Virus record (IMG/VR): IMGVR_UViG_3300046791_000499
Location: 1-64,000 of that record
Strand: one strand, 5' to 3'
Source of the DNA: a virus
Length of the DNA: 64,000 nucleotides
Shown here: positions 381 to 34,394 of the stretch, one piece after another
Numbering within the stretch: position 1 is the stretch's first letter
Layout: each line of letters begins with the position of its first letter
Made by a program: the position numbers and the translations under genes
The notes under the pieces: model-generated
Told to the model about the DNA's origin: nothing
What the model saw: the letters and a program-made list of their open reading frames with translations, nothing else
Databases searched by the model: none

Positions 381-391
381 GGATGGCGATC

Positions 392-688: not shown

Positions 689-760
689 GCCGAGCGCCCC
701 GGGTCCATCGGATGATGGTCCGAGGTCAACTTACCAGAGTTCGTCGACTCGAACAGGTGA

Positions 761-1572: not shown

Positions 1573-1636
1573 CCCAGACAGCCCGGATATCGAAGGCGGA
1601 GGCCAGCGCACGACCGCGCCAGCCTCCGAGGATCCG

Positions 1637-2812: not shown

Positions 2813-2885
2813 GCTCGAACTGTGATCGGGTGGCATGCGTGGATCGGCACCCATGCGTGCGGACCGTCACGCTGCCATGATGCCG

Positions 2886-2913
2886 GGAATGAGCTGATGC
2901 CCGGCCCGGTCAT
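2886..2913 (+). promoter_or_regulatory. GGAAT-N17-GGTCAT promoter-like motif upstream of folE2 (representative of >20 copies)
   Basis: ggaat gagctgatgcccggccc ggtcat cctccc GTG; same spacing recurs at many intergenic sites. Confidence 0.75.
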
Positions 2914-2919
2914 CCTCCC

Positions 2920-3663
2920 GTGATCGAAGACGTCCAAGCTACCCGCGATGACCGTGAGATCCCCCTCGACCGCGCTGGGGTCTCTGGCCTCCGTCACCCG
3001 ATCACCGTGCTCGACTGGGCCTCGGGCCTGACCCAAGACACCGTTGGCGTGTTCACGGTGTCGGTGTCGCTTCCGTGCGAGCAAAAAGGCACGCACATGA
3101 GCCGCTTCGTCGAGGTGCTCAACGATCACCACGGCGAGGTCACCATGCGGACGATCCCGGTGATCCTGCACGATCTGCGCAAGCGGCTGTACGCAAACCG
3201 CGTGGCACTCGAAGTGACGTTCCCCTACTTCATGGATCGCATCGCCCCGGTCAGCGGCGCGGCGGCGCTCATGGACTACGAGACCACGTTCACCGGTGCG
3301 ACGGACGGGACCTGCGATGACTTCGTGCTACGCGTGAAGGTCCCGGTCACGAGCTTGTGCCCGTGCAGCAAGGCCATCTCCGAGCGTGGCGCCCACAATC
3401 AGCGCGGCTACATCGCCATCTCGGTCCGCTCGGTCGTCACGCTTCCGCCCGTCAACCCGGCGCTGATCTGGATCGAGGAACTCGTGGAGTACGCCGAGCG
3501 ATCCGCCTCGGCTCCCGTCTACCCGCTGCTCAAGCGCGTCGACGAGAAGTTCGTCACCGAGCAGGCGTACGACAACCCCGTCTTCGTCGAGGACATGGTG
3601 CGCAACACCGCTCGGCGATTGATGGATGATCCGCGCGTTGCCTGGTTCGAGGTCCACGCCGAG
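2920..3663 (+). CDS. folE2: GTP cyclohydrolase FolE2 (type IB), N-terminal 248 codons; C-terminus displaced to 22779-22862
   Basis: KGTHMSRF, SLCPCSK, GAHNQR, LLKRVDEKFVTEQAYDNPVFVEDMVR; conserved ESIHNH tail absent here. Confidence 0.93.
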
Positions 3664-5054
3664 AAGATGACCAACTGCTCCGAGTACTGCGCGCGGTGGA
3701 CTCGGTTCGGCTGCCGTCGACCAGGCTGCATCTGCTCGGCGTCACGAGGCCAGGCAACTACGGCGAGTACGTCGCGCGCGGCGTGGCCTCGATCGACTCG
3801 ACGTCTTCGCTGCGCCGGTCGTGGATGGATCGCAAGGCCAACTACTTCTACGGCGGCACCAGCTATTGCGCGCTTCGGATCCCACCGGCGAATTCGAAGC
3901 GGGTCCACGGGCGCATCGGCTCGGGCGAGATCAACGGCGACTCCGCCCGCGTGCTCGAGGAGGCCGCGCTCGCGGCCGTCGCCGCGTTCGACCGCGAGGA
4001 AATGAGCGCCGCCGAGACGCTCGACGTCTTGCTCGCCTACCAGGCCATCCACAGTCCTGACGATGACCGCCGATCCGACTATGCACGCACGCTGAGCGCC
4101 AAGCCTTGGGCCCGGTGCAAGTGCCGGATCTGCGCGCGGCTCGGACACCACGTGATCCTGCTCCGGGGTGCCGAGCGCAACCGGCTCCGCGGCTTTCACA
4201 ACGTAGGCAGGTTCTACGGATCGATGCTGCGCGAGCTGGGCGAGCCGACCCTCGTGCTCGTCGGCTGCGGCGAGGCCAAGCGCAAAGACGCGGGCCCGGC
4301 CAAGGACATCTACACCGGCTCGCTCTACCGCGCGCACACCAAGTTCGCAAACCGGTACCGCGCGCCGGTTCGGATTTTGTCCGCATTGCACGGCGTGCTC
4401 GATCCCGCCAAGGTGATCGAGCCCTACAACAAGGTCGTGCCGAAGCATGGGCCCGAGCGCAGCGCGTGGGGATCGATGATCACCGAGCAGCTCGCCGAGA
4501 TCGTCGAGCCCGGCTCCACGGTCGTGGCCCTCGCGGGAGAGCGGTACCTCGGGTGGATTGGCGACGCCACCGGGCTCACGGTCGAGCAGCCGCTCGCGGG
4601 GATGACCACCGGCAAGAGGCTCGAGTACGTGGCCGGCCAGCCAGCCGAGGAGGCGCGGCCGGTTCGGTCCGGCGCCCCGATCGCGTGGGACTTCTTTTGG
4701 ACCACGTACCGCAGCAGCCTGCGCGGTGAAGCGATCGCGGAGTACTGGACCCGTAACCCCAGCCACACGGCTCGGCTCGATCTTCCCAGCGACACCCCAC
4801 TTCACGAGGCGATCGCAGCCGCGCGCGATGCCGGCCTGTTCGGCAAGGGCTCTCCGCGAACCGGGGTGTTCGAGATCCAGAACGACCTCGGGATCTACTG
4901 GGCCCCGGCCGGGTTCCTCAACATCGGGCTCGCACGGCCTGACCGGGTTCGGTTCATCTCCTGGGATGACGCCGAGCAGGCCGAGGGCAGGGGCGAAGAT
5001 CATCTCTCCAACCCGGGCCTCGGCGTCACGGTGGCGGAGATGGTTGCAGCATGA
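3664..5054 (+). CDS. dpdA: DpdA (DNA 7-deazaguanine transglycosylase, TGT-like) C-terminal half fused to a DUF6884-like domain; N-terminal half displaced to 22988-23582
   Basis: (K)DDQLLRVLRAVDSVR..LHLLGVTR..SIDSTS..CKCRIC..RGAERNRLRGFHN, then LVGCGEAK..AKDIYTGSLY..ILSALHG. Confidence 0.88.
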
Positions 5055-5593
5055 GTTGGTGCTGGTGCCGATACTGCCAGGCAGGCGTGGTTCCGGGCCC
5101 GCTTTGGAAGTGCTCGGAATGCGGCTGCGATCTGGCCGAGACCCACACGGACATCGACGATCTCGAGGTTCCCGATCTCCCTCGAGCGCCGGCCGACTCC
5201 GCATCGATCCGCCACCGCCGGACCCAGAATCCGGTTCGACCTTTCGAGCAGCGGCCACGGCCAGCCACGAACGTGAGCTGTGATCTCCGAGTGCCTGGCG
5301 CTCGCGAAGCTCACCGATGCGCCTCCGCTGCTCGATCGACTTGTCCTTCGCGCGGATCTGCTCGGTGGATAGAGGCCACCCGATTGCGCGCCGAACTGGC
5401 CGGCCTCGCAGGTTCCACCGCCAGAGCCGGAGCAGCCAGCCCAGCCGAACCCATGTCGAACGCGGCCTCCGTTCAACTCGTCTCGCTGCTATCCGCGAAA
5501 CTCCGCGCCCGTAGCATAACGGTGGGGCGCCTGGACGCCACGGATACCGGCGAAGATCCGCCGGCACCCGCCCCACGCGAGCGGTTGGACTGA
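5051..5593 (+). CDS. Hypothetical protein with N-terminal Zn ribbon
   Basis: CRYC...CSEC; ATGA overlap with dpdA. Confidence 0.5.
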   Translation: MSWCWCRYCQAGVVPGPLWKCSECGCDLAETHTDIDDLEVPDLPRAPADSASIRHRRTQNPVRPFEQRPRPATNVSCDLRVPGAREAHRCASAARSTCPSRGSARWIEATRLRAELAGLAGSTARAGAASPAEPMSNAASVQLVSLLSAKLRARSITVGRLDATDTGEDPPAPAPRERLD

Positions 5594-5629
5594 CGGGAAT
5601 CTCGGGCTCGCCAGCGAGGTAGGCCAACC

Positions 5630-5905
5630 ATGTCCATCGAAGATGTTCGCACGCGGCTCTCCAGGCGTGCTCCCGAAGACGGCGCGGCCCTGCTCATGCA
5701 CCACGCCACCAACATGATCCACGAGAGCAGCCGCTTGATCGGTGTCGCGCTTGCCCGCGAATCCGGCCATGTCTTCAACCGTGACCGGGTCTACGAGGCT
5801 GGCAGTCGCGAGGCCAAGTTGATGGCGCTGCAGGTCAAGGCCCGAGAGGTCGAGCAGGCTGCCGACGAACTCCAAGGCTTGCTCTCACCACAGGATGACG
5901 ACTAG
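5630..5905 (+). CDS. Hypothetical protein
   Basis: ORF directly downstream of a GGAAT-N17-GGTAGG motif. Confidence 0.6.
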   Translation: MSIEDVRTRLSRRAPEDGAALLMHHATNMIHESSRLIGVALARESGHVFNRDRVYEAGSREAKLMALQVKAREVEQAADELQGLLSPQDDD

Positions 5906-5907
5906 CC

Positions 5908-6732
5908 ATGGACACCAAAGACAGCGACGCAGACTCCGCCCTATGCCACCAACGCATCGGTCGTTCCCTCCGGCAGATGGACCAGCGCGACAAACTCGGA
6001 TGGCTGCTGACCGAGCAGGCCAATGTCGCCGTGCTCCGAAAGGCGTTGCACGATCTCATCCATGATGACTCCGGCCGGATCAGCAACGATGAGCACGCCC
6101 GCGCTCTCGCTATCTCGGCGACTCTCCAGCGTGCGACCGATTCGGCCGAGAAGATCGTTGTGTTCGGCGGCACCTTCGACCCACCGCACAACGGTCACAT
6201 CGCGTCCGTCGATGCCCTTCGCGCTATCGGTCATCGCGTCGTGGTTGTCACGAGCGCCGGCCATGAGGGCAAGCCTGGCAGCGCCGCGACCTATCAATGG
6301 CGAAAGCATCTCGCCGGGCTTGCCTTCGGCGACTGCCACGATCCGATCGAGGATCACATTGATGTATCCGATCCGCGACGCGCCTTGCTCGTGCTACGTC
6401 GTGTCCGTCAGCAGAACCCACACGCCGAGATCCTCTTCGCCGTCGGGCCCGACATCGACCCAAGGGCTTGGACCGGGTACGAACAGATCATCGGCGACGG
6501 CTTCGACTTCCTGGTCGTGCCCGAGTACGGCACTGGATTGCACAGCACGAACGTCCGCGAGCATGTCGCCACCGGCAACTTCGACGCGCTGACGGGCATG
6601 GTCCCGCCAGCCGTGGTCGAGGCCATGGCCGCGTTGCACGACCAGCCGTTTGCGCACGTGCCGTCCTTCTCGGTGATCGAGCCGGCTCAGCGCCGCGCCG
6701 GCTGGACCGACCATGGGATCGAGTGGCCGTGA
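5908..6732 (+). CDS. NadD-like nucleotidyltransferase (HxGH family) with N-terminal extension
   Basis: VVFGGTFDPPHNGH, FAVGPD, LHSTNVR, MVPPAV. Confidence 0.85.
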   Translation: MDTKDSDADSALCHQRIGRSLRQMDQRDKLGWLLTEQANVAVLRKALHDLIHDDSGRISNDEHARALAISATLQRATDSAEKIVVFGGTFDPPHNGHIASVDALRAIGHRVVVVTSAGHEGKPGSAATYQWRKHLAGLAFGDCHDPIEDHIDVSDPRRALLVLRRVRQQNPHAEILFAVGPDIDPRAWTGYEQIIGDGFDFLVVPEYGTGLHSTNVREHVATGNFDALTGMVPPAVVEAMAALHDQPFAHVPSFSVIEPAQRRAGWTDHGIEWP

Positions 6733-7320
6733 CCGAGCGCCGCATCTCGCAGATGGCTCCGCTCGAGGCAGCCATACGCCCCGAGGTCACGCCGCGAGCC
6801 CAGTACACGGGGTTCCCTGGCATGCTCACCATGCGAGCGGTGGTGAACAACCGCGAGCGCGGCCGCTGGTCCCTCAGCGTCGACACGGCTGCCCCGATCG
6901 CCGACTGGCTCGAGTCGACGGGCCATCCTTCCGCTCCAGAATTCCGCGCAGCCTGGCAACGTGCCTCGCTGCTTCCCGTGAACGAAACACCAGCGAGTGC
7001 AACATGAACATCATGATCGATGAACCCATCCCTCAAACCACCCGCGACGCCTTCGACCCCTACGCCTTCGTCGGCTGGCTCTACACCTGTGTGACCTGGC
7101 AAGACGACGGCCCGCCCGATGAACACGACGGCAGCAGCCCGTGCATCATCGCGCTCGGGGCCACGCAGCTCGGCTGGCGGTTCGATGCCGCCTGCCGCGT
7201 TGGCTGGCGCCTGCTCTTGGAGAACGAAGACGCGGGCCAATGGGCTCGGACGTTCCTCCTCCCGCAGTGCAACAAGTTCATCACCGGGTGTCTGCTCGGC
7301 GAGACGCGGTCGCGGGCCCT

Positions 7321-9060
7321 GTGAAGCTCACCCCGCGTCCGTACCAGATCGAGTCGAAGCGATCGGTCTACCGCGCCTTCAAGGAGGGTGCTCGCCGCGT
7401 GCTGGTCGTCATGCCCACCGGCACCGGCAAGACCGTGACGTTCGCTTCGATCGTCGCTGACGCGGTGGCGCAGGGGAAGCGCGTGGCCATCCTTGCCCAC
7501 CGCGAAGAGTTGCTCGACCAGGCCGCCGAAAAGATCGAGACGCTCGCCGGCATCCCCGTGGCGATCGAACAGGGGACGCGGAAACAGGCAGGCGATGACG
7601 CGCGGGTCGTCATCGCCTGCGTGTTCTCGTTGATCCGTCGGCTCGATCGGTTCCCAGCGGATCGGTTCGATCTCATCATCATCGACGAAGCCCACCGGTC
7701 GCTGGCGAACACGTATCGACAGCTACTTGCACACTTCTCCTCCGCCCGCGTGCTCGGAGTGACCGCGACGCCCAACCGCGGCGATGAACTGGCGCTGGTC
7801 CAGGTCTACTCGATCCTCGCATACGAGATGACGCCAGCAGACGCCGTGCTCAACGGCTGGCTCGTGCCGTATCGGACCGTGACGATCGAACTGCAGTCGC
7901 TCGATCTCACGACCGTGCGGCGGCGCAACGGAGAATTCCTGGCCGGCGAACTCGGGGCGGCCATGTCCGAGATGCGGGCACTACGAGAGGCGGTTGAGCC
8001 CGCGGTCGAACTCGCCGGCCACCTTCGCGCGATCGTGTTCACGTGCACGGTCGCACACATGCACATCGTCGCCGAGACCGTGCGGGCTGTGGCCAACGAG
8101 CGCCGCCTGAGTCTGACGGTGGCCACGGTCGATGGGTCGACCGCGAAGGATGAGCGCCGCCAGATCATGGCCGACTACAAGTCCGGCAAGATCCGCTGGC
8201 TGATCAACGTCGACATCGCGACCGAGGGCTTTGATGCACCCGAGACCGAGGCCATCATCGACATGCAGCCGAACGAGGCCCGCTCGCGGTTCACCCAAAA
8301 GAAAGGCCGCGGCGCTCGACCCCTGCCCGGGGTAGTCGATGGCGTCGATGCAGCCGAGATGGCGGTGCGGCTCGATCTGTTCATGGCCAACGGCCAGATC
8401 CCAACGGAGCCGGACCCTTGGCTGGTCGCGGCCATCATCGGGATCCACCGTGGCGACGATGCAGCAGCACGGAGGATGGCGATCATGATGTCGGCCAAGC
8501 CCGAGTGCCTCGTGCTCGACTTCACCGACAACTCCGGCAAGTTCGATTTGGCCACCGAGATCGACGCCTTGGGCGGGGACTACGAACTTCCGGTCCAGCG
8601 CGAGGCCCAACGACTCCTCGCCGACGGTGGCGCCCGCCACCTGCTCGACGCGCTCGAGCAAGCCCGTGCCGCTCGAGCAGCCAAGATCCGCGAGGCTCGG
8701 GCGAGGCAGGGCGACCCCTTCGCCATGTTCGACATTCCGTTCCGTCAGGAGAAGTACGGCCGGCCACCGACGGAGAAGCACCAGCGCATCGTCGCGCCGC
8801 TCAAGATCCCGATCGCCGAACTCGGGTGGCGCCAGGCCAACGACCTCTGCAACGAGTTGGCGCGGCGCGAGCACGCCGACCTTTCCATGTACGAGCAAGC
8901 CCGGCTTCTTGCGCAGCTCGGCTGCCCGGTCGCGTGGCTTCCAGACATGTCCCGGCGCGAGGCGTCGGAGATGCTGGGTGAACTGGCCAAGGACTACTGG
9001 GTCAGGCCCAAGGACTGGCACGGAATACGCGAGCGGTCCCGTCGGTCGGCTGCTGCATGA
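7321..9060 (+). CDS. Superfamily 2 (DEAH/ResIII-like) DNA helicase
   Basis: LTPRPYQ, MPTGTGKT, IIDEAH, GVTATP, TEGFDAP, QKKGRG; GTG start at 7321. Confidence 0.92.
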   Translation: MKLTPRPYQIESKRSVYRAFKEGARRVLVVMPTGTGKTVTFASIVADAVAQGKRVAILAHREELLDQAAEKIETLAGIPVAIEQGTRKQAGDDARVVIACVFSLIRRLDRFPADRFDLIIIDEAHRSLANTYRQLLAHFSSARVLGVTATPNRGDELALVQVYSILAYEMTPADAVLNGWLVPYRTVTIELQSLDLTTVRRRNGEFLAGELGAAMSEMRALREAVEPAVELAGHLRAIVFTCTVAHMHIVAETVRAVANERRLSLTVATVDGSTAKDERRQIMADYKSGKIRWLINVDIATEGFDAPETEAIIDMQPNEARSRFTQKKGRGARPLPGVVDGVDAAEMAVRLDLFMANGQIPTEPDPWLVAAIIGIHRGDDAAARRMAIMMSAKPECLVLDFTDNSGKFDLATEIDALGGDYELPVQREAQRLLADGGARHLLDALEQARAARAAKIREARARQGDPFAMFDIPFRQEKYGRPPTEKHQRIVAPLKIPIAELGWRQANDLCNELARREHADLSMYEQARLLAQLGCPVAWLPDMSRREASEMLGELAKDYWVRPKDWHGIRERSRRSAAA

Positions 9061-12000
9061 GCCACAAGCCCGACTACAGCGACCCTCCCTACTTCGGCGA
9101 GCCCGACGATGACGAGTTCGAGCCCATCCGCGATGCCGAGATGGAGGCGCTGCAGGCCGACTACCCCGGCGACTTCGTGAGCCGGGTTCGGATCCTGACG
9201 CCGTCCGGCAACTGGATCGAGGCCATCGCTCACCACGGCGATGAGGTCGGGACGCTGCTCGCCACACTGTGCTGCGTCACCGGCCCCAAGAACGAACTCG
9301 AGCGCGACGCCATGGCCGCCCTCCAGAAAGCGCTCACGTCATGATCGGCATGGGCTCCGTGACGATCCAGATCAACGGCGTGCCGCTGCTGCCCGCTGAT
9401 CCGAAAGCAAGGCGCGCGGCCATTCAAGCAAGTGCCGAGACGTTCGGCCGCAACACCGTCGCCGCAGGCTTCAACAAGGCCAGCGACATGCCGAGCCCGG
9501 CGGCGTACCAACGCGCAGCCGCGGCCGCTGCCACGATGATGGAGCATCAAACCATCCATCTGGACCTGCTCGTGAACCTGATCGCGGAAGCTGTGGACAC
9601 GCCATGACCACGCGCGAGTACATCTACATCCCGGCGCGCACGCCTGATGAACAGGCCGCCAATCCTCGCTACGATCCGATCTCCATGGAGCGCAAGCCGG
9701 ATCGTCTCTGGTCATTGGCTGTCGGCCGGCATGATCCCGATGCGGTCATCGACCCCGAGATGCCGCTGATCCACGGCCAGACAGCCTGGGTCGAAGACGT
9801 CGGCCACGACTGGCGATGGCGCGATGGCCAGTTGTTCTACCACCCAGGCGGCGAGCGAGATGGCGGGCTCTGGCTTGCTCTCGTCTTCGCGGAGATGCCA
9901 TGAGCAGGGGATCCAGCGGCTCGTCGTACGGGCACAAGTGCATGCGCCAGCCCATGGATCGGCACGCCTACGTCATCATGTGGGTCACCGATCACAAGCA
10001 CGTGGGCAGCCGTCTCCGCCATCCTCGCGTGAGTCGACGGTACACCGATGAAGCTGGCGCCCGGCGGTTCTGTGCCAAGTGGGGTTGCAAGCTACCCGCC
10101 GGACTCGAGCGGGACGTGAAGGCGTGACGATGGCCAAGCATCTCCAACTTCCCAGCGCTGATCTTCCGCAGTCCGATCGCTATCAGATGCCGGACCCGGA
10201 CGGTGAACTCGGCGAGGCGTACGAGAGGCTGTACCACCAAGCCTATCTCGACCAGCCGCTCAGCCGCGAAGACGTCAAGGACGTGCTCATGCTCGCCCAC
10301 GGCTACCTCGATCTCACCACATACGATCTCGGGCAGGAATGCTGCGTCGGGAAGTTGCGAGACATCTGGCGAGCGCGTCGTCGCCGGGCTGCGGAAGGTG
10401 CCGGATGACCGTCATGGACGGCGGCGGGCCGAGCGAGCAGCCCTTCGAGCGCGTGCACCTGCCGATCCCGCCAGACTTCACGGGGCCGATCTGCGCCGAC
10501 TGCAAGAGCGTCCGTGGCTCGGAGCGTGGAGATCGGTACGCGTTCGGTGTGCATCTCTCCCGCTGCCTTGCCCACGCCTACCGCGTGACCCAGCCCGCCC
10601 GGCGGTGCACGATCACAGGCGAGATCTATCAAGAGCAGATCGAATACCCGCTGTGTCGCGACCACAACGACCTCGGGCAGTGCGAGAGGTTCGAGCCCAA
10701 GCACGGCGTGGGGCTCGTCGCGCTCGAGGAATCTGCTCGAGCGGAGGCCGGCTCCGGCGATCCCTATCGGTCGCTGGTGCCTAGCCGCGGTGGTGACGTC
10801 GGACCCGGTGAACTGCGCGGCGGCGGCCCTGGCCCGTTGAAGCTGTTGGCAGGCAGCATCGGCCGCTGGCTCGTCATCTGGGGTTCGTCGTGACCGATCT
10901 TCGTCCGGCGCTCTCCGCCAAGCTCAAGATCCTGAGCGAAGGTCCGCAGTGGTTCACGTGGCCTGGCTTCGGTAACGAGACGCTGCAGCGGCTTCGGCTC
11001 GAAGCAGTGCCCGAGCAAGCGGCCTTTGATCCGCCCGGCGTGCTCGCCATCATCGTCAGCCGATCCAAGTTCGGGCTCGCCCGCGTCGTCTACAAGGACG
11101 GGCTGTGGGCGCACGATGTCCGATGGCTGCACGGCGGTGGCGTGGGCAGCCTTCCGATCTCGGCCTCGCTCCGAATCCACCGGCCGGACGTTCGCGCCGT
11201 GGCCACCGAGTCCCGCGACCGTGCTTCACCGGAGACACCCTCATGACCCTCGACGAAACCATCCGCGACTGCGTGCACTTCTACCCCTCGCTGTTCGAGA
11301 GCCGCATCTCTGCGCTCGACCATCTCTACTGCGTGCTCGGCAACGGCTACGACTGGCAGGACGGGGTGCTCGTGGAGCGCGGCACCTACAAGCCGTTTGA
11401 GCCCATGGTCCGGCTCGAGCACCAACGCCAAGCACGGGAGGAAGAGTTCTCGGATGCGCTCTCTGGTGTTCTCAGCGACTGGTACGTGAAGCGGGCAGCG
11501 GTCATCCGACGCGTGCACGAAAACGAGCAGGCGATCGTGACCGGCGCCATGAACTACACCCTCGTGGGCAAGCACGGATTCTACCCGCTGACCGCGATCT
11601 CGTGCCCTCGCCATCTGTCCGAGGTTCCCGACGATGTCCAACCCGACTGGCTTGCTGGCGCCGTCGAGGTCGCGGAGCTGATCATCGCGTTCGGCGAGCA
11701 CTTTGACCGGGCCTTCGTGGTTGGCGAGTTCGAGGATGACACCGATCGGCGGCGAGAAAACGCTCAGGCCAACGCCGCGGTCGCCAAGGTCGTGCTCGCG
11801 GATCTGCGCGCCAGGTTCCCGGGATGCTCTGCGCCGCCCGGCCTGGGGCTCGCTGGGCTCACCTGGAATGCCGCGCCGTCCTCCCCGGTCGAGCCCAATC
11901 ATGGGGTTCATCCACGACACTGACGACCCGTCCTTCAACGGGATCACCGTTGAGTCCCGCTCGAATGCCAAGACCTTCGTGCTCGGGCTCGACCTACTCG

Positions 12001-12389
12001 ATCCCGACGACCCGCTCGACGTCGCCGATCAGCCCGAGACCGTGGCCTTCTCGTTCAACGGCGAGGCCATCCTGGTCGGCAGCGACTCATCCGAGAGCCG
12101 CGTCTGGCTCGAGATCAAACTCGACAACATCGACGCGATCCGCAAGGCGCTCGACCTAGCCGAAGAGTACGGGCTCGAGCACGGCTGGCAGCCCGCGTCC
12201 CTGCCGAAACTCCCTTGGTACTGGTCCTGGGAATGGGCCAACGGCAAGTGGCAGGCTCGCAGCACGAGCAACGTGCTCGTCGGCTACGACGCAGACGGCC
12301 AACTGCTCGCGCTCGATCCCGAAGGTGAGCCCGTCCGCGCGGGTGACATTGTCGATGCGGTGTTCACCGCGAACGGCGGTGCACCATGA
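9057..12389 (+). other. Run of about 9 small, mostly translationally coupled hypothetical phage genes (9057-9344, 9341-9607, 9604-9903, 9900-10127, 10130-10408, 10405-10893, 10890-11246, 11243-11923, 11901-12389)
   Basis: Consecutive + strand ORFs, most with ATGA/GTGA overlaps. Confidence 0.6.
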
Positions 12390-13435: not shown

Positions 13436-13457
13436 CAGATGAAAGCGAGGCCCCACC

Positions 13458-14447: not shown

Positions 14448-14507
14448 CCGACGCGCGGATCCGAACGAGGCCGGCCGTGGGAATCCACCGCCGGCCTCGC
14501 TGTTTCT

Positions 14508-15782
14508 ATGGGTATGACCAACGTGATCATGGTGGCCGGGCTCGGCTTCGGCGACGAAGGCAAAGGCACCGTCGTCGAGGCGCTCGTGGATCGGTGGAAA
14601 GCTCCGTTGGTGGTTCGCTTCAACGGTGGCGCGCAATGTGCCCACAACGTCGTGGACATCGACGGCCGACACCACACCTTCGCGCAGTTCGGATGCGGCA
14701 CCCTGCTTGGGGCGCGGACGTTCCTCTCGCACAAGGTACTGGTCGACCCGCTCGCGCTCGTCAACGAAGCCACGCACCTTCACGAGATCGGTGTACGGGA
14801 TCCGATGTCGATGCTCACCATCGACCGCGACGCCCCCGTGATCACGCCCTACCACAAGCTCGCCAACCGCAAGCGCGAGCAGGCGCGAGGCGGGCTCATC
14901 CACGGGAGTTGCGGCATGGGCATCGGCGAGACCAGGGTTGACGCGACGGAGAACCCAGCCGAGTACCTGCGCGTCGGCGACCTCTTCGATCGTGACCGGC
15001 TGCAGCGTGGCCTCGCCCGCGCTCGCGACCGCGTCTGTGCCGAGTTCGGCCCCGACGAGTCCTTCGACTGCGCCATGGAATTCGGCGAGGTCATGTGGCG
15101 CATTTGGGCCCTCGCCAACCGCCTGCGAGGACAAGTCGTCGACCGGACCTGGCTCGAGGGTGAACTCGAGCGCAACGACACGACCGTGTTCGAGGGTGCA
15201 CAGGGCGTGCTCTTGGATCAGTCGTGGGGATTCCAGCCGCACACCACGTGGAGCGACACGACCTTCCGCTGGGCTGACGAGCTGATCGCGGGCACCGACG
15301 TCGAGGTCGAGCGCATCGGCGTCACCAGGGCCTACCTCACCCGGCACGGCGCGGGCCCGATGCCCACCGAGCGAGATATGGATCTCGCCGAGCCTCACAA
15401 CGACGGTGGCTTCGCCGGGCACTTCCGCACGGGTATCCTCGACCTCAACCTGCTCGACTACGCCGTCAAGGTCTGCGATGGGATCGATGCGCTCGCCGTT
15501 ACGCACCTGGACCGGCGGCCTGCCTGGGACGTGTGTACTTCGTGGGGTGCTCTCGCCGACGCCGTCTTCGGCCGGCACGAGATCGGGATCGCGGCATCCG
15601 AGGCCGACCTCTACGCAAGTCAGACGAATCTCACGTGGCTACTCAACAAACTCGACTCGAGGCTGTTCGAGATGGCCACGTTCTCACCGCACGACCTGTG
15701 CATGCATTTGGCGCAGGTCGTCAAGGCCAGCGTTTACATCCGCTCGTTCGGCCCAACACGGACGAACAAGGTCTGGGGATAA
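14508..15782 (+). CDS. Adenylosuccinate synthetase-like (divergent PurA family)
   Basis: GLGFGDEGKG, RFNGGAQCAHNV, FEGAQGVLLD, YLTRHGAGPMPTE, LAVTHLD. Confidence 0.88.
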   Translation: MGMTNVIMVAGLGFGDEGKGTVVEALVDRWKAPLVVRFNGGAQCAHNVVDIDGRHHTFAQFGCGTLLGARTFLSHKVLVDPLALVNEATHLHEIGVRDPMSMLTIDRDAPVITPYHKLANRKREQARGGLIHGSCGMGIGETRVDATENPAEYLRVGDLFDRDRLQRGLARARDRVCAEFGPDESFDCAMEFGEVMWRIWALANRLRGQVVDRTWLEGELERNDTTVFEGAQGVLLDQSWGFQPHTTWSDTTFRWADELIAGTDVEVERIGVTRAYLTRHGAGPMPTERDMDLAEPHNDGGFAGHFRTGILDLNLLDYAVKVCDGIDALAVTHLDRRPAWDVCTSWGALADAVFGRHEIGIAASEADLYASQTNLTWLLNKLDSRLFEMATFSPHDLCMHLAQVVKASVYIRSFGPTRTNKVWG

Positions 15783-16069
15783 CCGGTCCGCGCAACAACC
15801 GTGGAAAGTCAGCCGGATCGTTCGGTCTCGCAGCACCCGGATCTTGTAGACGAGCGCGCTCGCGATCGAGTACGTTGACGATCCGAAGATGAGCAGGCCC
15901 ACAAAAGGGCCGAGCCCCAACACCGCGACAGGCAAGAAGCGGGGGAGGGGCTCAGAGCGGGAGAGGAGCCCGCCGACATGAGCGAAGATACCCACACAAG
16001 CGATCCACGTCAACCCGCCATAGTTGCGCCGCATCAACTCGATCTGCGGTTGAGCGAGCGGAGGTCGCC

Positions 16070-17263
16070 GTGACCCATGTGACAGACGTCGACTGGTTCA
16101 ATATCAAGGCCGCGGCGTGGATTTACCGGCTGCCAGAGTCACGGAAGGGCCTATGCGCCGGGTGCAAGGTCATCATCCAAATCCTCTGGAACCGAGTCAA
16201 CGGTTCGGTGGAGTCCGACACTACGCACGCCCAGTCCCCGTGGGTCTCCGTGGAGACGCTTGCCGAGCAATGCGGGGCCAAGCCGGACACCGTTCAGGCG
16301 AGGCTCGACAAGCTGACGGCTCTCGGTTGGATCCGTAGGCACAAGGGTCGGCGCCTGCTCGCGTGGGGGCGTCCGTTCCCCAAGCCAGAGGCCAGTCCGG
16401 GCCTGGCGGATTCACCAGAGGCAGCCAGTGTCAGCGAGACCGGGCCAGGATTCGAGTCCTCCACAAGTGAAGCCGGGCGCCGGGATTCGAGTCCTCCCGC
16501 GCCGGGATTCGAGTCCTCCCGCGCCGGGATTCGAGTCCTCCCGCGCCGGGATTCGAGTCCCGAGGATCAACCCAATAACCAAGCCATTGAACCAAGCCAA
16601 GACCAACCCAAGGTCGATGAGACTCTCGCCCCAGCGAGTAGGCCGAGTCTGCTGACGGACACTGCGCCACCCGCGAGGCGTCGGCGCAAGCGCGTCGACT
16701 CCACGCAAGAGTCTCTGCCCATACCCGGCACCGAACCGCCGGAGCAGGTCAAGGCCGACCAGGCCCAGCTTGTGGCGGATCGCCTGTGGTCTCGGCAGGC
16801 CGAGACCCGCGCGGCCCTCAAGATGCCGGTGACCGGTACGAAGTCGGTGCTCGATGCCAACCGCCGAGGGAAAATCAACACGCGGATCGCCGACTACGGT
16901 CTCGACGCCTGTTATCGTGTGATCGAGGTCGATGCTTCGGATTGCTTGAAGCAGGGTCGCGGTGGGTCGTCTTGGGGATACTGGAATCTCGACACCCCAT
17001 TCAGGAACGCGACAAATTTTGAACAGCGGCTCAACCGCTGGCGAGATGACGGAAAGCACGTCCCGTGGGGTGCACCATCGCGACGAGACCAGTCTTGGTC
17101 GCAGGGCTCCGGGATCGGCTCCCGCGAAGCACACCGAGCCCAGCGCGAGAAGTTGGAGCGCGAGGCCACCGAGCGGGGCGAGACCATCCCGGACGAGGTC
17201 GGCTACTGCGACAACGACGATGACTGCAGCAACGATGAGCGCATGGAGGCGGTCCACCAATGA
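16070..17263 (+). CDS. Phage replication initiator/replisome organizer (N-terminal wHTH, internal iterons)
   Basis: SVETLAEQCGAKPDTVQARLDKLTALGWI HTH; contains tandem repeats; lies upstream of loader and DnaB. Confidence 0.8.
   Translation: MTHVTDVDWFNIKAAAWIYRLPESRKGLCAGCKVIIQILWNRVNGSVESDTTHAQSPWVSVETLAEQCGAKPDTVQARLDKLTALGWIRRHKGRRLLAWGRPFPKPEASPGLADSPEAASVSETGPGFESSTSEAGRRDSSPPAPGFESSRAGIRVLPRRDSSPEDQPNNQAIEPSQDQPKVDETLAPASRPSLLTDTAPPARRRRKRVDSTQESLPIPGTEPPEQVKADQAQLVADRLWSRQAETRAALKMPVTGTKSVLDANRRGKINTRIADYGLDACYRVIEVDASDCLKQGRGGSSWGYWNLDTPFRNATNFEQRLNRWRDDGKHVPWGAPSRRDQSWSQGSGIGSREAHRAQREKLEREATERGETIPDEVGYCDNDDDCSNDERMEAVHQ
16445..16560 (+). repeat. 22-bp iteron-like tandem repeat (gccgggattcgagtcctcccgc), probable replication origin
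   Basis: Copies start at 16479, 16501, 16523 and 16545 (partial), plus a degenerate copy near 16445; 3x22 bp keeps the frame. Confidence 0.85.
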
Positions 17264-18195
17264 CCAGCACAACGGCTACGGCCGCAGCCCTGCTCACGCT
17301 CACCAAGCACAAGCGTGAGCGCGCGGCCGGTCATGTTGCGAGCTTCAAGCGGATCCAGTCGCAGCTCGGAGACGACGTCGCTGCTTGGGCCTACGCGGAC
17401 AAGGGCATCGGGCCCGGCTTGCGGGCCCCGTGTGCGACCGCGACTGAGTTGGCGAAATGGGATCCCAGCGCGGGCGATTGGTGCCGAGTGATCAGCGGCT
17501 CGCAGGGGACGGGAAAAAGCGTCACGGCTGCTCGGTATGTCGCAGAGCACGGCGGGATGATGGTCAGTGCCGTGTCGGCTGACGCATGGGGATTCGGCGG
17601 AGGTCGACCCCTACTCGCCGCGATGGAAGCACCGTGGCTGCTGATCGACGACCTCGGAGAGAGCAAGACCCGGCCGGGAGACGGGAACCTCGGCACGTTG
17701 ATTGCCGAGCGCTACGCCAAACGATCTCGCTGCTACCTGGTGATCACGACCGTACTGACCCCGGAGCAGATCGAGCAGCGCTACGGCGAGAACGTCTCGT
17801 CGAGGTTGCGGCCTCACATCATTCAATTGTTCGCACGAGAGACGGCCGACCGGCGAGGCACTACACCGCCAGTGCTCACGGGGTTCAACCGGGAGATGGA
17901 GATCGCATGGTACGGCGAGCGAGTCGAATACGCTGCTGCAGGCGTGCTCGAACTCGGCGCAGCGACCGAGGCAATCACCCGACTGGCCGAGGTCACCGGG
18001 GTCGATCTCGCCGGGGAGAAGATGAACGCCGCCTTGGCTGGCGAGGCGGAGCGTCAAGAGACGCTCGCCCGGCTCGGCTCGGCGACGATCGCAGCGCTCG
18101 GGGCACCCGTGCTTCGGCTTGTGCCGCCACATGATCCACGCGGCGATGATCTGCTGGAGTGGATCGACTCGCTCGATTCGGGGGCCACCAAGTGA
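17260..18195 (+). CDS. DnaC/IstB-like ATPase (helicase loader)
   Basis: ISGSQGTGKS, LLIDDLG, LIAERY, VITT, SSRL. Confidence 0.8.
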   Translation: MTSTTATAAALLTLTKHKRERAAGHVASFKRIQSQLGDDVAAWAYADKGIGPGLRAPCATATELAKWDPSAGDWCRVISGSQGTGKSVTAARYVAEHGGMMVSAVSADAWGFGGGRPLLAAMEAPWLLIDDLGESKTRPGDGNLGTLIAERYAKRSRCYLVITTVLTPEQIEQRYGENVSSRLRPHIIQLFARETADRRGTTPPVLTGFNREMEIAWYGERVEYAAAGVLELGAATEAITRLAEVTGVDLAGEKMNAALAGEAERQETLARLGSATIAALGAPVLRLVPPHDPRGDDLLEWIDSLDSGATK

Positions 18196-19640
18196 ATCTG
18201 ACGACGTCATCCGAACGAGCACTCATTGGCGGCACGCTGGACCGCGGCGCTGTCGAACTGTCATTGGTACGCAGCGAGGTCAAGCCGGACATGTTCTCGT
18301 GCGATCCGGTTCGCGCCGTGCTCGAGGCTGCATGCGCCGTAGTGGACGGTGGCCGCGAGCTGACGATCGTCGAAGTCGCCTCGGCGCTCGAGCAGGCGGG
18401 GAGCCTCGATGCGGTTGGTGGGCTGCGCGGGCTCGACGAACTTCGGAGCGAAGCCCGACCGATCGGCGAACGGGAGGCACTACTGCGTCACGTTCGAGAT
18501 GCCGCGCAACTTCGCAAGGTCGGGGCCAAGGCGGCCAAACTCGGTGCTGCTGCTGCGCATCCGCTGGCGATCGCAAATCCAAGTCGGTACTTCGCCGCGA
18601 TCACGGCGATGTCCAACGAAGTCCAGGGCTCGATCAGCACTGGGACCGCGAGCGCGGCTCAGGGTTGCCGGGCTTCGATGGAAGCCCTTCTCGCGCGAGG
18701 CAAGCGGGTCAGCGCATCGCCGACGGGTGTCTCCGCCTTGGATCGACTTCTCAATCCTGGGATCAAGCGCAAGAAGACGTACTTGGTCGCAGCCCGACCA
18801 GGCTGCGGCAAGTCTGCGCTCGCTGTTCAGGCCATCGGCGTCGGTGCGAGTGCTGGCCACCCGCAACTGTTCTTCTCGTGCGAGATGCCGCTGTCCGACG
18901 TCTTCGATCGCATCGTGGTCCAGCGGACGCGGATCGACTCGGAGCGCTACGAAGTGGGGACCGGCGCGAACGGGCTCAGCGAAGCCGAGTTTCGGCTGGT
19001 GATCTCGGAGATGGACCGCGTCTCGCAGTTGCCGATCTGGACGATCGACGACGAATCCGAACTCGGGTCGATGTTGGCCAAGAGCAAGGTCTGGCTGGAT
19101 ACGGTGGCCTGGCCCTGGATCGAGCAGCACCGAGGCGAACCCGGGCCCGACGGCCGGGAGATGGATCTCGTGCCCGTGGTCGGTATCGACTACTTCCAAC
19201 GGTGCTGGCTCGACGGCAAGTGGGGCACGACCGAGGAGATGTTCGCTACCATGTCCAAGCGGATCGCCAACTTCGCGCGCAAGGAGAACTGCGCGATGAA
19301 GGTCATGGTCCAGGCCAACAAGGATAACGTGAAGGAGAACCGACCGCCCCGCGCCTCCGACATGAAGTACTGCGACGCGCTCGCGGCCGACGCCGACGTG
19401 GTGATCCTGCTGCATCGCAACCTCGGAGCGGACACGAGCGACCCCAGCGAGACCGCGATCGACGAGCGCGGCCGGTCCGTCGAGGAGCCGGCGATGATCA
19501 TCGTGGACAAGCACCGAGGCGGCCGGGTCGGTGTTGCGTGGGCGACATGGCACGGTCCAACGGTCCGGTTCTCCGACCGCGAGCACGAGGGCCCGTGGGT
19601 CCCGAAGGCCGTGGCGGCCGGGAAGCCAGGCCGCCGATGA
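18192..19640 (+). CDS. dnaB: Replicative DnaB-like helicase
   Basis: AARPGCGKS, FSCEM, IDYFQ, DADVVILLHR, IVDKHRGG. Confidence 0.92.
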   Translation: MNLTTSSERALIGGTLDRGAVELSLVRSEVKPDMFSCDPVRAVLEAACAVVDGGRELTIVEVASALEQAGSLDAVGGLRGLDELRSEARPIGEREALLRHVRDAAQLRKVGAKAAKLGAAAAHPLAIANPSRYFAAITAMSNEVQGSISTGTASAAQGCRASMEALLARGKRVSASPTGVSALDRLLNPGIKRKKTYLVAARPGCGKSALAVQAIGVGASAGHPQLFFSCEMPLSDVFDRIVVQRTRIDSERYEVGTGANGLSEAEFRLVISEMDRVSQLPIWTIDDESELGSMLAKSKVWLDTVAWPWIEQHRGEPGPDGREMDLVPVVGIDYFQRCWLDGKWGTTEEMFATMSKRIANFARKENCAMKVMVQANKDNVKENRPPRASDMKYCDALAADADVVILLHRNLGADTSDPSETAIDERGRSVEEPAMIIVDKHRGGRVGVAWATWHGPTVRFSDREHEGPWVPKAVAAGKPGRR

Positions 19641-19690
19641 GCCCGGGAATGCCGGACCAGGCTGCGAGGTCAGGGGTCCGAAGCCTACCC

Positions 19691-21512
19691 ATGGACCTGT
19701 CCAAGTATCCGATCGAGACTCGCGCACGAGCTGCGCTTCGGATCACCGCGGACCTGTACGCCAAGGCGCAGGCCGGGCCGAGCGAGACCCCAAAGTACGA
19801 GGCCCGGCGCATTGCGTTCTTGAAGGTTCGCCCTGCCGTCGTGCTGACGGCCGAGCGAGCCATCTTCCGGGCGTCCAGCGAAGCCCTCCTCGCCGCTGCC
19901 GAGTCCGCGAACGGCCAGGCGCCCGACGAAGCCGATCCGAGGCAAGCCCTCATCGACGCCCTGCTCCGCATCGCCAAGGTCCAGGACGATGAGTTCGCAG
20001 CCGAGTGCGCAGCCGTCGACGAAGGCGAGTTGGCCGTCCAACGGTTGCTCGAGCACGCCATCTCCAAGCTGAGCAGCAAGCCGGAGCGCAGGCCCGGTAT
20101 CCGCCTGACCTCGGCCCCGTGCGACCACGGACTTGTCCAAGGGCGCATGCGATTCGACTCGTGTGCCGATGGACCCGACCCGTGCCTCGCCGCCGTTCGC
20201 TTGGTCGAAGCCGAAGTGCGAGCAGGGCTCAGCGGACCCAGGGCGCCATTGCCCGTACCTCGTGATACTCCAGAGACCGAAACCCTCGCCAAAGACATCC
20301 TCTCACACGACGAGCCCCACCATGAGCAGCCAACAAGCTACCGCCAACAACGTGATCAGCATGCCCACCCCTGACCCCCGAGACACCCATGTCCGCGCCT
20401 TCGCTGGCATGCGTGCTCTCTACATGATCAAAGAGAAGCTCATCGCCGCTCAGGCTGTGGCCAAGGCGGACTGGAAAGAGAAGAAGTCGGCCGCGACCAA
20501 GGAGTACCGCGAGCCGATCCGAGACCAGTTCGACGCGATCGTGGGCGTGAACATCGACCTGTCCGGCAAGGACAAGGGCACGCAGACGATGAAAACGAAC
20601 TACGCGGAAGCGTTCATCGTGGTTGTCCGCGGTGTGAAAAATTACGACAACGTGAAGTCCGATGCCGATGCGGACAAAAAAGCACGCAAGGATCGCATCG
20701 ACGCGATGGAGATGGCGATCAAGGAATGCGTCAGCGCGGCGACCGTGAATCCCAACCAGGGCAGCCTCTTTCCGCCTACCGGCGGCTCCGTCGATGGGCT
20801 GGCGTGGGCGAGCGCGGCGACCCGCGCCGCGATGTTCACGTCGCTCAAGGAACTCGATCGAGACAAGGTCACGCTCGATTGCTTCCAAGAGAGCCTCTTG
20901 CTCGATCTCGGCGGCGCGGGGATCGAGGAACTCGACCTCGGGCTGGATGCGTCCACGGCGGTCGAAGCCGATGGCGTCGAAGCCGAGCCACCCACGGAAG
21001 GTGAGGGCGCCAGCGATGATGACCTTGGGTTCGACTAGGTCGCGGTGGCCAGTCTACGCGGCCGTGTCCGGTTTCGTGGCGTTCATCCTTTCGCTCATCG
21101 TGAGGCTGATCGGATGACCGCCGCGATGACATGGCTCGAGATCACGGCCGCGGTATTCGAGGGGCTACTGCTTCCAGCCGAGCACGCGGATCCCTGGAAA
21201 CTCGACCGCGTCAGCCCCGGGATCGAGGCAGCCGCGTTGCTGATCTGCGCGATCGGTCGCTGCGAGGCACACACCGGACTGCGCCCCAACCAGGTCACCA
21301 CGTCGGTCCAGCCGACGTTCGTGGCCAGGTACCTCGGGGCCGATGACCGAAGCGCGGTGCTTGAGTCGTGGCCAGGCGAGGATGATCCCGCCGAGGTCGT
21401 GCTTGGGCTTTCATCCGAGACAGCAAACGAGGCGCGCACACTGGCGCGCGATGCCGCGACCGACGACGCGCCGTTCTTGCGCATGGCTGAGTTTCTACGA
21501 GGGGAGCCATGA
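19691..21512 (+). other. Three hypothetical genes (19691-20374, 20323-21038, 21115-21512)
   Basis: Consecutive ORFs in operon orientation. Confidence 0.55.
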
Positions 21513-21889
21513 CAGATCACGACGAGCAGGCCGACCTCGGCCAAGCGGTCGCCGATGTCGATCGGCGGCTCCGCGTGTCGTGGCCATCGTCATACACGGC
21601 CAGCGGGCTCCTCTCGCACCTCCGGGGTGAGCTTCGCGAGATCGAGCAAGCCGTGCTCGATGCAGACGGCCGGCCGAGCATGAACGGTGAGGTCGTCGAG
21701 GAGTGCGGCGACGCGATGTTGCTGCTCGGGCGGCTGGCGATGATGTACGGCGCCAAGTCTGCACTCGAGCCCCTGGCCCTTGCGGTGCGCAAGACATGCC
21801 GGCGACTCGAGCACTTCGAGCAGTTGGTCAGGTCATCCCCACCTGCAGAGGCTTGGCGTGTGGCGAAGATATTAGCGAGGCGCAAATGA
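21509..21889 (+). CDS. MazG-like nucleotide pyrophosphohydrolase
   Basis: HLRGELREI...EVVEECGDAML ExxE/ExxD pattern. Confidence 0.7.
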   Translation: MTDHDEQADLGQAVADVDRRLRVSWPSSYTASGLLSHLRGELREIEQAVLDADGRPSMNGEVVEECGDAMLLLGRLAMMYGAKSALEPLALAVRKTCRRLEHFEQLVRSSPPAEAWRVAKILARRK

Positions 21890-21922
21890 GCGTGGGGCCG
21901 ACGGGCAATAAGGGTCAATCCA

Positions 21923-21931
21923 TGTTATACT
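21923..21931 (+). promoter_or_regulatory. Extended -10 (TGnTATACT) sigma70-like element just upstream of tnpB
   Basis: tgttatact in an AT-rich patch, 4 nt before ATG 21936. Confidence 0.55.
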
Positions 21932-21935
21932 CGTT

Positions 21936-22778
21936 ATGTTGATTCGGACGTACAAATACCCGCTGAGGCCAACTGCTGCCCAGCGGGCAGGGTTCGAGCG
22001 GTGGCTCGGCCAGAGCTGCGAACTCTACAATGCCGCGCTGGAGCAGCGTATTACTGGGTACCGACGTACGGGCAAGAGCGTCACATACAACGACCAAACG
22101 AGGCAACTGACCGAGTTGCGCAACGCTGAGCCGGAGTTCGGAGCGTTGCCGGTCCGGGTCCAACGCTCGGCCCTGCGTCGGCTCGACAAAGCATTTCAGG
22201 CGTTCTTTGGTCGAGTGAAGTCCAAGGCATCGAAGGCAGGCTTCCCACGTTTTCGGGCGCGGGCGCGCTACGACACATTTGGCATAGGCCGGGTGGGGCC
22301 CCGGCTGGACCAGGCCGATTCGAGCACCGGCCACCTACGTGTGGCCGCTCTTGGCCTGGTCCGGTTTCGCATGCGCCACGAAATGATCGGAGACGTCCGA
22401 GACGTCACGATCACGAAAGACAGCCGGGGTCGGTGGTTCGTGTGCTTCGCCTGCGATGTGGGCGAAGCGCCGCCGAAACGAACGGTGACCACCGCGGTGG
22501 GCATCGACCTCGGGCTGTCGTCGTTCGCTACGCTCACCGACGGGTCCGAGATCGCAAACCCACGCCACACCCGGACCGCCGCCGAGTCGCTGGCTCGTGC
22601 GCAACGCGTACTCTCGCGCAAGTCGAGGGGCAGCCGCTCGCGGGCGAAAGCGAAGGCTGCGGTCGCCCGCGTGCACGAGCGCATCCGCAACGCGCGACGC
22701 GACTTCCACTACAAGACGGCGCGAGCGCTGGTCGAACGCTACGACCTCATCGCGCATGAAGATCTGTCGATCGCCAGG
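21936..22778 (+). CDS. tnpB: TnpB (IS200/IS605-family RNA-guided endonuclease), N-terminal part
   Basis: RTYKYPLRPT, LYNAAL, GFPRFR, VGIDLGL (RuvC-I), AHEDL (RuvC-II); interrupted after EDLSIAR. Confidence 0.93.
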
Positions 22779-22862
22779 AACATCGAGTCCATCCACAACC
22801 ACTCGGCCTTCGCCCAGGTTACGTGGTCGCGCGAGCACGGCTTCGTGGGGACCAGGCCATGA
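22779..22862 (+). CDS. folE2: FolE2 C-terminal fragment (currently fused in frame to TnpB-N)
   Basis: NIESIHNHSAFAQVTWSREHGFVGTRP*; ESIHNH is the conserved FolE2 C-terminal motif. Confidence 0.92.
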   Translation, partial: NIESIHNHSAFAQVTWSREHGFVGTRP

Positions 22863-22988
22863 AGAACTCGGCTGCCAGCCGGTCGCCGCCCATCTCGTCG
22901 ACGATGATCCCGATCTCCCAACGGACCTGCTCCTGGTGAGCGTCTCGCTCGGCCCTGTTGCGCAGCCATGACGGCAAGCGCTTGGTCA
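22862..22988 (+). repeat. 127-bp direct repeat, copy 2, separating the dpdA ATG from codon 2
   Basis: Identical to 1-127; deleting 126 bp gives ATG AAG TTC TTC CTG CCC GAT AGC (MKFFLPDS). Confidence 0.93.
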
Positions 22989-23582
22989 AGTTCTTCCTGC
23001 CCGATAGCCGCGACTCGGTCGACACCACGTTCGACTTCACCAAGGAGACCCGCTCGCCGGACCGGATCCCGCGCGATGAACTCTACATCCACGAGATGCT
23101 CGACCGATCCGTGGATGGGCTGCTCGTCTCCTACGCGGGGCTCCGCGATGGCAGGTACTCGGCCGCGGCTCGACGTCGGTTCATGCGTGAAGGCGCCCGT
23201 GGGTTCTTCCGCGCGGCTCCGTGGATGAGTTTCATGGGGGACCCCGGCGCGTTCTCCTACATCAAGGAGTCCGAGCCCCCGGTCACCGTCTCCGAGGTCG
23301 CCGAATTCTACGGGTCCGTGGGGATCGATCTCGGCATGGCCGTCGACCACATCGTGAGCGGGTACTCCGACGAGCTGTTCGAGGATCCCGATCCCGAGCA
23401 GCAGCGACGCTATGATCTGACGCTCGCGCTCGCCAGCGACTTTCTCGCGGCCGCGAAGCCCCACGCGTTCGAGCCCGTCGGCGTCGTCCAGGGTTGGAGC
23501 CCTGCCTCCTACGCTCGCGCCGCTGCCGAACTCCAGCGCATGGGCTACGGCTACCTCGCGCTCGGCGGCCTGGTCAGGCTCA
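22988..23582 (+). CDS. dpdA: DpdA N-terminal half
   Basis: KFFLPDSRD, DGLLVS, MGDPGAFSY, AVDHIV, GVVQGWSPASY, YLALGGLVRL. Confidence 0.9.
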
Positions 23583-23891
23583 ATGGTTCATGGAAACCTG
23601 GCAAAGAGCATCCACGACGTGGGTTGGGCTCAGTTCATCACGATCCTGCACTGCAAAGCGGAAGAAGCTGGCGTGCATGTGGTCGCGGTGGACCCCAGGA
23701 ATACCACGCGTGAGTGCTCGAACTGTGGTGCGATCGTCCCCAAAGGACTGGGCGATCGCATCCATTCCTGTGACTGCGGCCTGACGTTGGGGCGCGATCA
23801 CAACGCTGCAATTAATGTCCTTGCCCGTGGCTTACGGGCGGTACCCGGCGGTGACGTCGGACCAGGGCCGCATCTGCGGCAGAGCCCGTGA
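23583..23891 (+). CDS. tnpB: TnpB C-terminal part (Zn ribbon + RuvC-III)
   Basis: LAKSIHDVGWAQF, VDPRNTTRECSNCG, CDCGLTLGRDHNAAINV. Confidence 0.92.
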   Translation: MVHGNLAKSIHDVGWAQFITILHCKAEEAGVHVVAVDPRNTTRECSNCGAIVPKGLGDRIHSCDCGLTLGRDHNAAINVLARGLRAVPGGDVGPGPHLRQSP

Positions 23892-24289
23892 GTCGCATGA
23901 TCCCGATCGGCGTTGAGATCCCAGCCGAGCAACTCCCCAACCTCGTGTTCGTGCGGGTGCTCGAGCAGTGGGAGGGCGAGCTACTCGGCACCCTGCGCGA
24001 GCCCACGACCGGCGCGGTGTGGCTGCGCAGTTGGGTCTCGTGCGACGCGACCGCGCATCGCTGGCTTTACTGGCGGGTCACCCCATCGTCGCTGGTCGAG
24101 TACCTGGACATGCGGCTGACGTTCCTCGCGCTGATCAAGTCGGCCGTGGGGGCGATGTACCTACGCGACGTCGAGGATGGGGCCGTGCACCGGACGGCGA
24201 CAGTCGAGTTCGACGAGCTTCCGGGAGGGTACCTGCCCAAGCCTGAGTGCTTGCCCGGCCCCATCCTGACGGACTGGCCAGCCGAGTAG
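23888..24289 (+). CDS. Hypothetical protein (DUF6575-like)
   Basis: WV..D....RWLYWRVT..L..YL pattern; GTGA overlap with tnpB stop. Confidence 0.5.
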   Translation: MSRMIPIGVEIPAEQLPNLVFVRVLEQWEGELLGTLREPTTGAVWLRSWVSCDATAHRWLYWRVTPSSLVEYLDMRLTFLALIKSAVGAMYLRDVEDGAVHRTATVEFDELPGGYLPKPECLPGPILTDWPAE

Positions 24290-27312: not shown

Positions 27313-27321
27313 CCTGCGCCG

Positions 27322-34385: not shown

Positions 34386-34394
34386 GAGAGCAGC

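Follow-up and report, generated by a model that had tools for sequence, protein, structure and literature searches.

Between positions 2920 and 23891 of an environmental phage genome, the genes folE2, dpdA and tnpB are all broken, and their pieces lie among one another. Is this order a real DNA structure, and is it the product of an accident or of a programme? The stretch analysed, referred to as the window, is the 64 kb from position 1 to 64,000 of the IMG/VR viral record IMGVR_UViG_3300046791_000499, which is a single contig of 143,093 bp with 65.8% G+C. An initial annotation of the window had described one base-perfect block move that splits the three genes at once, and had considered a DNA-rearrangement switch, cargo mobilisation by an IS605 machinery, a one-off rearrangement, or a mis-join. 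The scrambled order was found in an independent assembly, and it is the one-off rearrangement that the evidence favours. The locus is probably a real, non-programmed structural mutation, produced by a single recent conservative break-and-rejoin that left three pseudogenes.

The gene pieces, delimited by profile matches and by comparison with homologues, are the following.

2920–3663, plus strand: N-terminal 248 codons of folE2, matching PF02649 positions 2–248 of 260 (E 2e-76) and ending with ...WFEVHAE.
3664–5054, plus strand: C-terminal half of dpdA with the DUF6884 region, matching NF041059 positions 213–402 of 406 from 3666 (176 bits).
21936–22778, plus strand: N-terminal 281 codons of tnpB, with HTH_OrfB and OrfB_IS605 matches, the RuvC-I Asp and the RuvC-II Glu, ending with ...EDLSIAR.
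22779–22862, plus strand: tail of folE2, 27 codons and the stop (NIESIHNHSAFA...stop), matching NF010200 positions 255–270 of 270.
22859–22861, plus strand: start codon of dpdA, overlapping the stop of folE2 as ATGA; M/KFFLPDS aligns with the N-termini of homologues.
22989–23582, plus strand: N-terminal half of dpdA, matching NF041059 positions 2–210 of 406 (215 bits).
23583–23891, plus strand: C-terminal 102 codons of tnpB, with the TNB zinc-finger domain and the RuvC-III Asp (RDHNAA).

Past position 3663, the open folE2 frame continues as far as 4005, through dpdA sequence that it reads out of frame. The coding signal of this open reading frame (ORF) ends around 3666, 339 nt ahead of the stop. 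The folE2 tail is fused in frame to the N-terminal part of tnpB, yielding a chimeric ORF of 308 residues. The N-terminal half of DpdA exceeds on its own the 200-bit cut-off of NF041059, the NCBIfam equivalog model for DpdA. Its match spans 22988–23581, and the piece ends with GGLVRL and the first base of a lysine codon. This split codon (A/AA) supplies the lysine between the N- and C-terminal halves, and the gene is split as encoded, with a full-length match to the model divided over two pieces. The motifs expected of TnpB (GIDLG, HED, CxxC...CxC and RDHNAA) are all present and distributed over two pieces of what is the sole tnpB of the genome. A gene at 23888–24289 overlaps the tnpB stop, which leaves no space downstream for a free-standing right end or an omega-RNA.

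When the pieces were re-ordered and 126 bp removed, the rejoined products were FolE2 of 275 residues, TnpB of 383 and DpdA of 662. All four joins were gap-free in alignments with intact homologues that are about 70% identical. Intact relatives of DpdA are fusions of 637–648 residues combining a tRNA-guanine transglycosylase domain with DUF6884. The splits and the restored lengths proposed initially were therefore reproduced, with the correction that tnpB is interrupted six residues after the RuvC-II Glu rather than five codons. The description of the move as base-perfect holds at codon resolution, there being no ancestral DNA for a base-by-base comparison.

In annotation, the six ORF fragments of the IMG/VR record are best treated as three pseudogenes. 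FolE2 is without its conserved C-terminal ESIHNH segment, DpdA is interrupted midway through its catalytic domain as well as cut off from its start codon, and TnpB is broken between RuvC-II and the zinc finger. The FolE2 and DpdA module, being in four pieces, is presumably inactive. The phage is predicted to have lost both its TnpB nuclease and the deazaguanine modification of its DNA. Since the frames of the fragments are fully open and their profile scores strong, with no further decay, the rearrangement appears recent.

The continuity of the genes defines a unique ancestral circle, R-A-C1-C2-B-D, to be compared with the observed circle R-A-B-C1-R-C2-D. Its remaining elements are as follows.

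3664–22778: block B, 19,115 bp, which has exchanged position with block C relative to the ancestral order.
1–127, minus strand: native copy of R, in the interior of a lipoprotein-like gene of about 347 residues.
22862–22988: second copy of R, in direct orientation, consisting of a 126-nt insertion and one shared A.

Block C measures 678 bp. Four ancestral sites were broken (within folE2, at the folE2/dpdA boundary, within dpdA and within tnpB) and two more sites bound R. Each ancestral site recurs in two of the new junctions, providing the left end of one and the right end of the other. There is zero loss of sequence, and all fragments are in direct orientation. The observed novel junctions are five (3663/3664, 22778/22779, 22861/22862, 22988/22989 and 23582/23583), and the restored joins connect 3663 to 22779, 22861 to 22989, 23582 to 3664, and 22778 to 23583. 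This anatomy agrees with the earlier statement that no bases were lost and no target site was duplicated.

The junctions show microhomologies of 1–3 nt (AA, GA, AAG, A and A). The earlier figure of about 1 nt is corrected accordingly. All six breakpoints have the form N-A-N, with one ambiguous base that is always A. The probability of sharing any single base by chance is about 0.003, and that of sharing A in this genome is 2e-5. No further motif shared by the six sites was found, as contiguous k-mers at fixed offsets and gapped four-position motifs both occurred at chance level. A GCCNNG/A pattern, present at three of the six sites, was rejected because 42% of random site sets equalled or surpassed it.

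The insert that separates the dpdA start codon from codon 2 had been noted as 126 bp at 22862–22987. This length is correct, and the insert could be traced: 22862–22988 is identical to contig positions 1–127 (127 nt, exact), one nucleotide being shared. Bases 1–119 of the contig equal 142975–143093, and this terminal overlap closes a circle of 142,974 bp, rated 100% complete by CheckV. The gene that contains R is one continuous minus-strand frame of 347 residues, running from 464 to 1, over the circle junction, and on to 142407. Because R sits within a continuous gene there, the copy at the contig start is taken as native and the one directly behind the dpdA start codon as a duplicative insertion. 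The layout of the contig, R-a-R-b-R[1-119], would fit a de Bruijn path that starts on a repeat edge with k=119. With such a starting point, the contig would begin at R without any artefact being needed.

That the insert equals the contig start, together with the 119-nt overlap, had first suggested an assembler or in-silico artefact. This was checked in the Logan assembly (k=31) of run SRR26075152, which is independent of the IMG/VR assembly. Its contigs were found through exact matches of proteins encoded in the window.

98–16506: Logan contig L002 (first 14,957 nt read), 0 mismatches, holding junction 3663/3664.
16531–22891: Logan contig L001, 0 mismatches, encoding the chimeric ORF of TnpB N part and FolE2 tail letter for letter.
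22959–34662: Logan contig L003 (first 11.7 kb read of a 45.5-kb contig), 0 mismatches, holding junction 23582/23583.

Together, the three contigs traverse all five novel junctions unbranched and at 100% identity. On three sides they terminate 30 nt (k-1) inside R, precisely where a de Bruijn assembler is expected to stop at a genuine repeat. Exact matches were not recorded for three other ORF products, probably owing to differing gene-call starts. Since contigs assembled independently at k=31 reproduce every junction, the reads contain both the scrambled order and its nested insert. Moreover, junctions 3663/3664, 22778/22779 and 23582/23583 coincide with no repeat. The artefact of assembly is refuted, and with it the mis-join that had been considered at the outset.

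A restored form was sought in several collections. Among 5.8 billion protein clusters, queried with the N-terminal parts of FolE2 and TnpB and, for longer proteins, with the N half of DpdA, no intact near-identical FolE2, DpdA or TnpB was found. At 100% identity, this contig's own two chimeric ORFs were the sole matches, each a singleton, and the next matches were about 70% identical. The restored order was not found in the three Logan contigs, and scans for exact junction flanks in the IMG/VR records other than the phage's own returned nothing. A junction 25-mer produced seven matches in JGI metagenomes and GTDB genomes, which were all discarded as unrelated genes sharing the peptide motif WFEVHAEN. 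The 25-nt string encoding this motif recurs exactly in unrelated high-GC genes, where it continues with NY..GGG, a coincidence that can mislead exact-match scans.

A search of viral contigs for DpdA relatives gave none. The nearest intact DpdA-DUF6884 genes lie contiguous after a QueD-type gene in unrelated smaller phages, and another lies in a bacterial Dpd island. None of the contigs carrying the best DpdA and TnpB homologues (phages and the bacterial Dpd island) was syntenic, and no relative with the ancestral order emerged. The comparison with related phages that the initial annotation had called for thus yielded an intact, contiguous dpdA-DUF6884 and no syntenic genome. As relatives keep DpdA-DUF6884 contiguous, the comparison supports the restored dpdA as a natural gene. 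DUF6884 itself has a weak YaaA-like similarity. The fusion is intact beside QueD in other phages and beside QueC and DpdD in the bacterial Dpd island.

How might the order have arisen? The ancestor would have carried an intact, translationally coupled folE2-dpdA pair, with an intact tnpB 19 kb downstream. Its DNA would have been broken at four points and rejoined conservatively, blocks C and B exchanging places, while a 126-nt fragment, R, from a sister copy of the genome would have been captured at the fourth break. Either ends with a 1-nt A/T overhang would have been ligated, or blunt ends joined on minimal microhomology. Nuclease damage could have made the breaks, and ligase or end-joining functions of the host the new joins. 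No Ku, ATP-dependent ligase or reverse transcriptase was found in the phage genome, so that the joining activity must be the host's. The whole may have been a single event, or two closely linked ones (block swap and R capture), their simultaneity being presumed. Given the absence of loss, the kept orientation and the single common base A, these two ways of joining are the simplest mechanism, and ligation of 1-nt A/T overhangs predicts just this combination; as a component of the break-and-rejoin account, this cohesive-end chemistry is put forward tentatively, as something a little short of likely. With such ends, rejoining after three breaks could retain the essential block B in only three ways: in the original order, swapped with C, or with C lost. 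The rearrangement appears to be fixed, or nearly so, in the one population sampled. Nothing suggests that it is reversible.

Several observations weigh against this account. Zero loss at four breaks plus a captured fragment is unusually tidy for accidental end-joining, and fragments of 83 and 595 nt that serve no use have been kept in native order. The breakpoints have no nuclease recognition motif in common. The phage encodes no end-joining enzyme, so that host functions have to be assumed. Both assemblies probably derive from the same read set. The k=31 contigs do not verify the pairing of flanks across the 127-nt repeat, and as contigs drop rare variants, a minority of genomes may have the restored form.

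The main mechanistic rival to break-and-rejoin is replicative template switching, the other explanations being minor. Copy-choice during phage replication, of the kind named microhomology-mediated break-induced replication or fork stalling and template switching, would give both the order and the 126-nt insert through jumps on 1–3 nt of microhomology. Such microhomology is present at every junction, a short insert with its template 3.5 kb away is characteristic of the process, and block B contains a probable replication origin (GC-skew minimum with a 22-nt iteron-like array at about 16.5 kb). However, five jumps would each have to hit the exact base that an earlier jump had left, with R as the only duplicated sequence, whereas replicative mechanisms normally leave duplications or deletions. 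Nor does the model call for one common base, A, at the six sites. Template switching is accordingly considered unlikely.

An artefact at the level of the library, such as an early amplification chimera that does not reflect a natural genome, would account for junctions whose tidiness looks unnatural. It would also be compatible with one probable read set behind both assemblies, the phage being represented by only one run (SRR26075152) and one IMG/VR record. However, the five junctions are each spanned by unbranched contigs with no competing restored path, and the 143-kb genome forms a cleanly closed circle with a rating of complete. Chimeras from amplification are for the most part inverted, each of them is rare, and parental junctions would be expected beside them. 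This explanation is improbable.

The shared A could also be the footprint of an undescribed phage or host cut-and-religate enzyme that generates 1-nt A/T ends, shuffles and perhaps restores phage DNA, so that the scramble would be one state of a recurrent modification toggle. This extension of the cohesive-end idea is given very little credence.

A programmed reversible rearrangement that toggles deazaguanine modification and TnpB together would explain why reciprocal, loss-free junctions occur in three genes at once and why the fragments are undecayed. A programmed switch requires a recombinase and repeated core sites. The phage genome has no recombinase of any major class: neither a Resolvase nor a Phage_integrase domain (serine or tyrosine recombinase) was detected in it, and the only RuvC-type recombinase candidate, tnpB, is itself broken. 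The junctions have no repeated core and no inverted repeat, the sequence in common being 1–3 nt with no motif beyond chance. Restoration would need three coordinated exchanges and a separate, exact excision of R. Only the scrambled configuration was found in Logan contigs, which drop rare variants, and in protein collections, and dpdA is intact and contiguous in relatives. The switch proposed initially is thus highly doubtful.

Single-strand peel-and-paste of the 804-bp block by an IS200/IS605 TnpA, supplied by the host or by a lost element, would seal the donor site precisely and leave the target site unduplicated, both of which are observed. In addition, the target is within tnpB, and one end of the block can be read as TCAA. 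Elements of this family (IS608, ISDra2) rely on a Y1 HUH transposase, on subterminal hairpins at both ends, and on the same guide-matched target at the donor flank and the insertion site. This earlier idea of cargo mobilisation is scarcely credible, as the complete phage genome gave no match to the Y1 transposase family PF01797 while controls were detected (a host copy could still exist), on neither strand do the ends of blocks C and B fold better than shuffled sequences (z from -1.4 to +1.0, absolute values below 1.4) or than the genome background, the donor left flank ends with GCCGAG and the target with GCCAGG (CGAG versus CAGG, where TnpA needs one and the same guide-matched cleavage sequence), an Rfam scan found no omega-RNA or other family nearby, and the supposedly mobile blocks are not an element but interior coding sequence of two genes. 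Even before it was broken, tnpB may have been a fixed, operon-embedded copy that was not part of a mobile insertion sequence.

Beyond the three genes, a frame scan of the whole genome for additional scrambles brought out only the breaks already known. A proteasome-beta/HslV-like gene at contig positions 64400–65174, which begins with MTLLVGIRCHDG, belongs to a two-gene module of lower G+C (56–58%). It was considered as a further block move (at about 64.5 kb) and rejected, being explained by an ordinary deletion (about 20–25 codons missing) and a frameshift. About four tandem units of 22 nt (GCGCCGGGATTCGAGTCCTCCC) occupy 16477–16560 of the window, inside an ORF and at the minimum of the cumulative GC skew (about 16 kb). 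The array may represent replication-origin iterons. The Logan contigs also break at this array. The contig contains two further short repeats: a direct one of 84 nt with 97.6% identity, whose copies (68449–68532 and 78056–78139) are separated by about 9.6 kb, and an inverted one of 77 nt with 88% identity (138134–138210 and 140183–140258), separated by about 2 kb. A search for DNA similarity to deposited phages gave no match. The top named relatives of FolE2 in the protein cluster search were from Enhygromyxa and Nannocystaceae, which hints at a possibly myxobacterial host (Nannocystaceae/Myxococcota).

The scrambled three-gene system is thus regarded as a genuine DNA structure and most likely a mutational accident. 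It provides a base-resolution record of a rearrangement in a wild phage that is complex and yet unusually clean, and in which a 7-deazaguanine anti-restriction module and a TnpB nuclease appear to have been knocked out. If the scrambled genotype truly dominates its population, loss of DNA modification would be tolerated or favoured there. The one base in which all breakpoints overlap offers a small, testable hint about the way ends are joined in such events.

Restored FolE2 and DpdA would form a module like the phage DpdA/7-deazaguanine DNA-modification modules already described (Hutinet et al. 2019, PMC6884629; Cui et al. 2023, PMC10516641), except that here it lies in four pieces. As in the skin element of Bacillus subtilis sigK and the cyanobacterial nifD element, a gene is split by DNA whose removal restores the frame exactly. 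These elements carry a site-specific recombinase of their own as well as repeated core sites, and are simple insertions into a single gene, whereas here three genes are interleaved, with a nested insert and without recombinase or sites. The IS200/IS605 TnpA process is similar in its exact resealing of the donor and its lack of target-site duplication, and differs in that the locus has no TnpA, no left-end or right-end hairpins and no common target tetranucleotide, and that the moved DNA is not an element. Cutting and religation of cohesive ends by a restriction-type enzyme would give a base-perfect, orientation-preserving re-ordering with a shared overhang; EcoRI-promoted recombination in vivo was reportedly described by Chang and Cohen in 1977. 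In the present case, the enzyme is hypothetical, and no common recognition sequence lies at the six sites or at a fixed distance from them. Finally, illegitimate recombination and complex multi-break rearrangement, which have been invoked for phage mosaicism and are formally chromothripsis- or chromoplexy-like, share with this locus the 0–3 nt of microhomology, the several breakpoints resolved together, the short fragment captured at a break, and the disruption of genes regardless of function. The present rearrangement is tidier than typical end-joining or shattering, since nothing is lost, orientation is kept, and one base is shared throughout.

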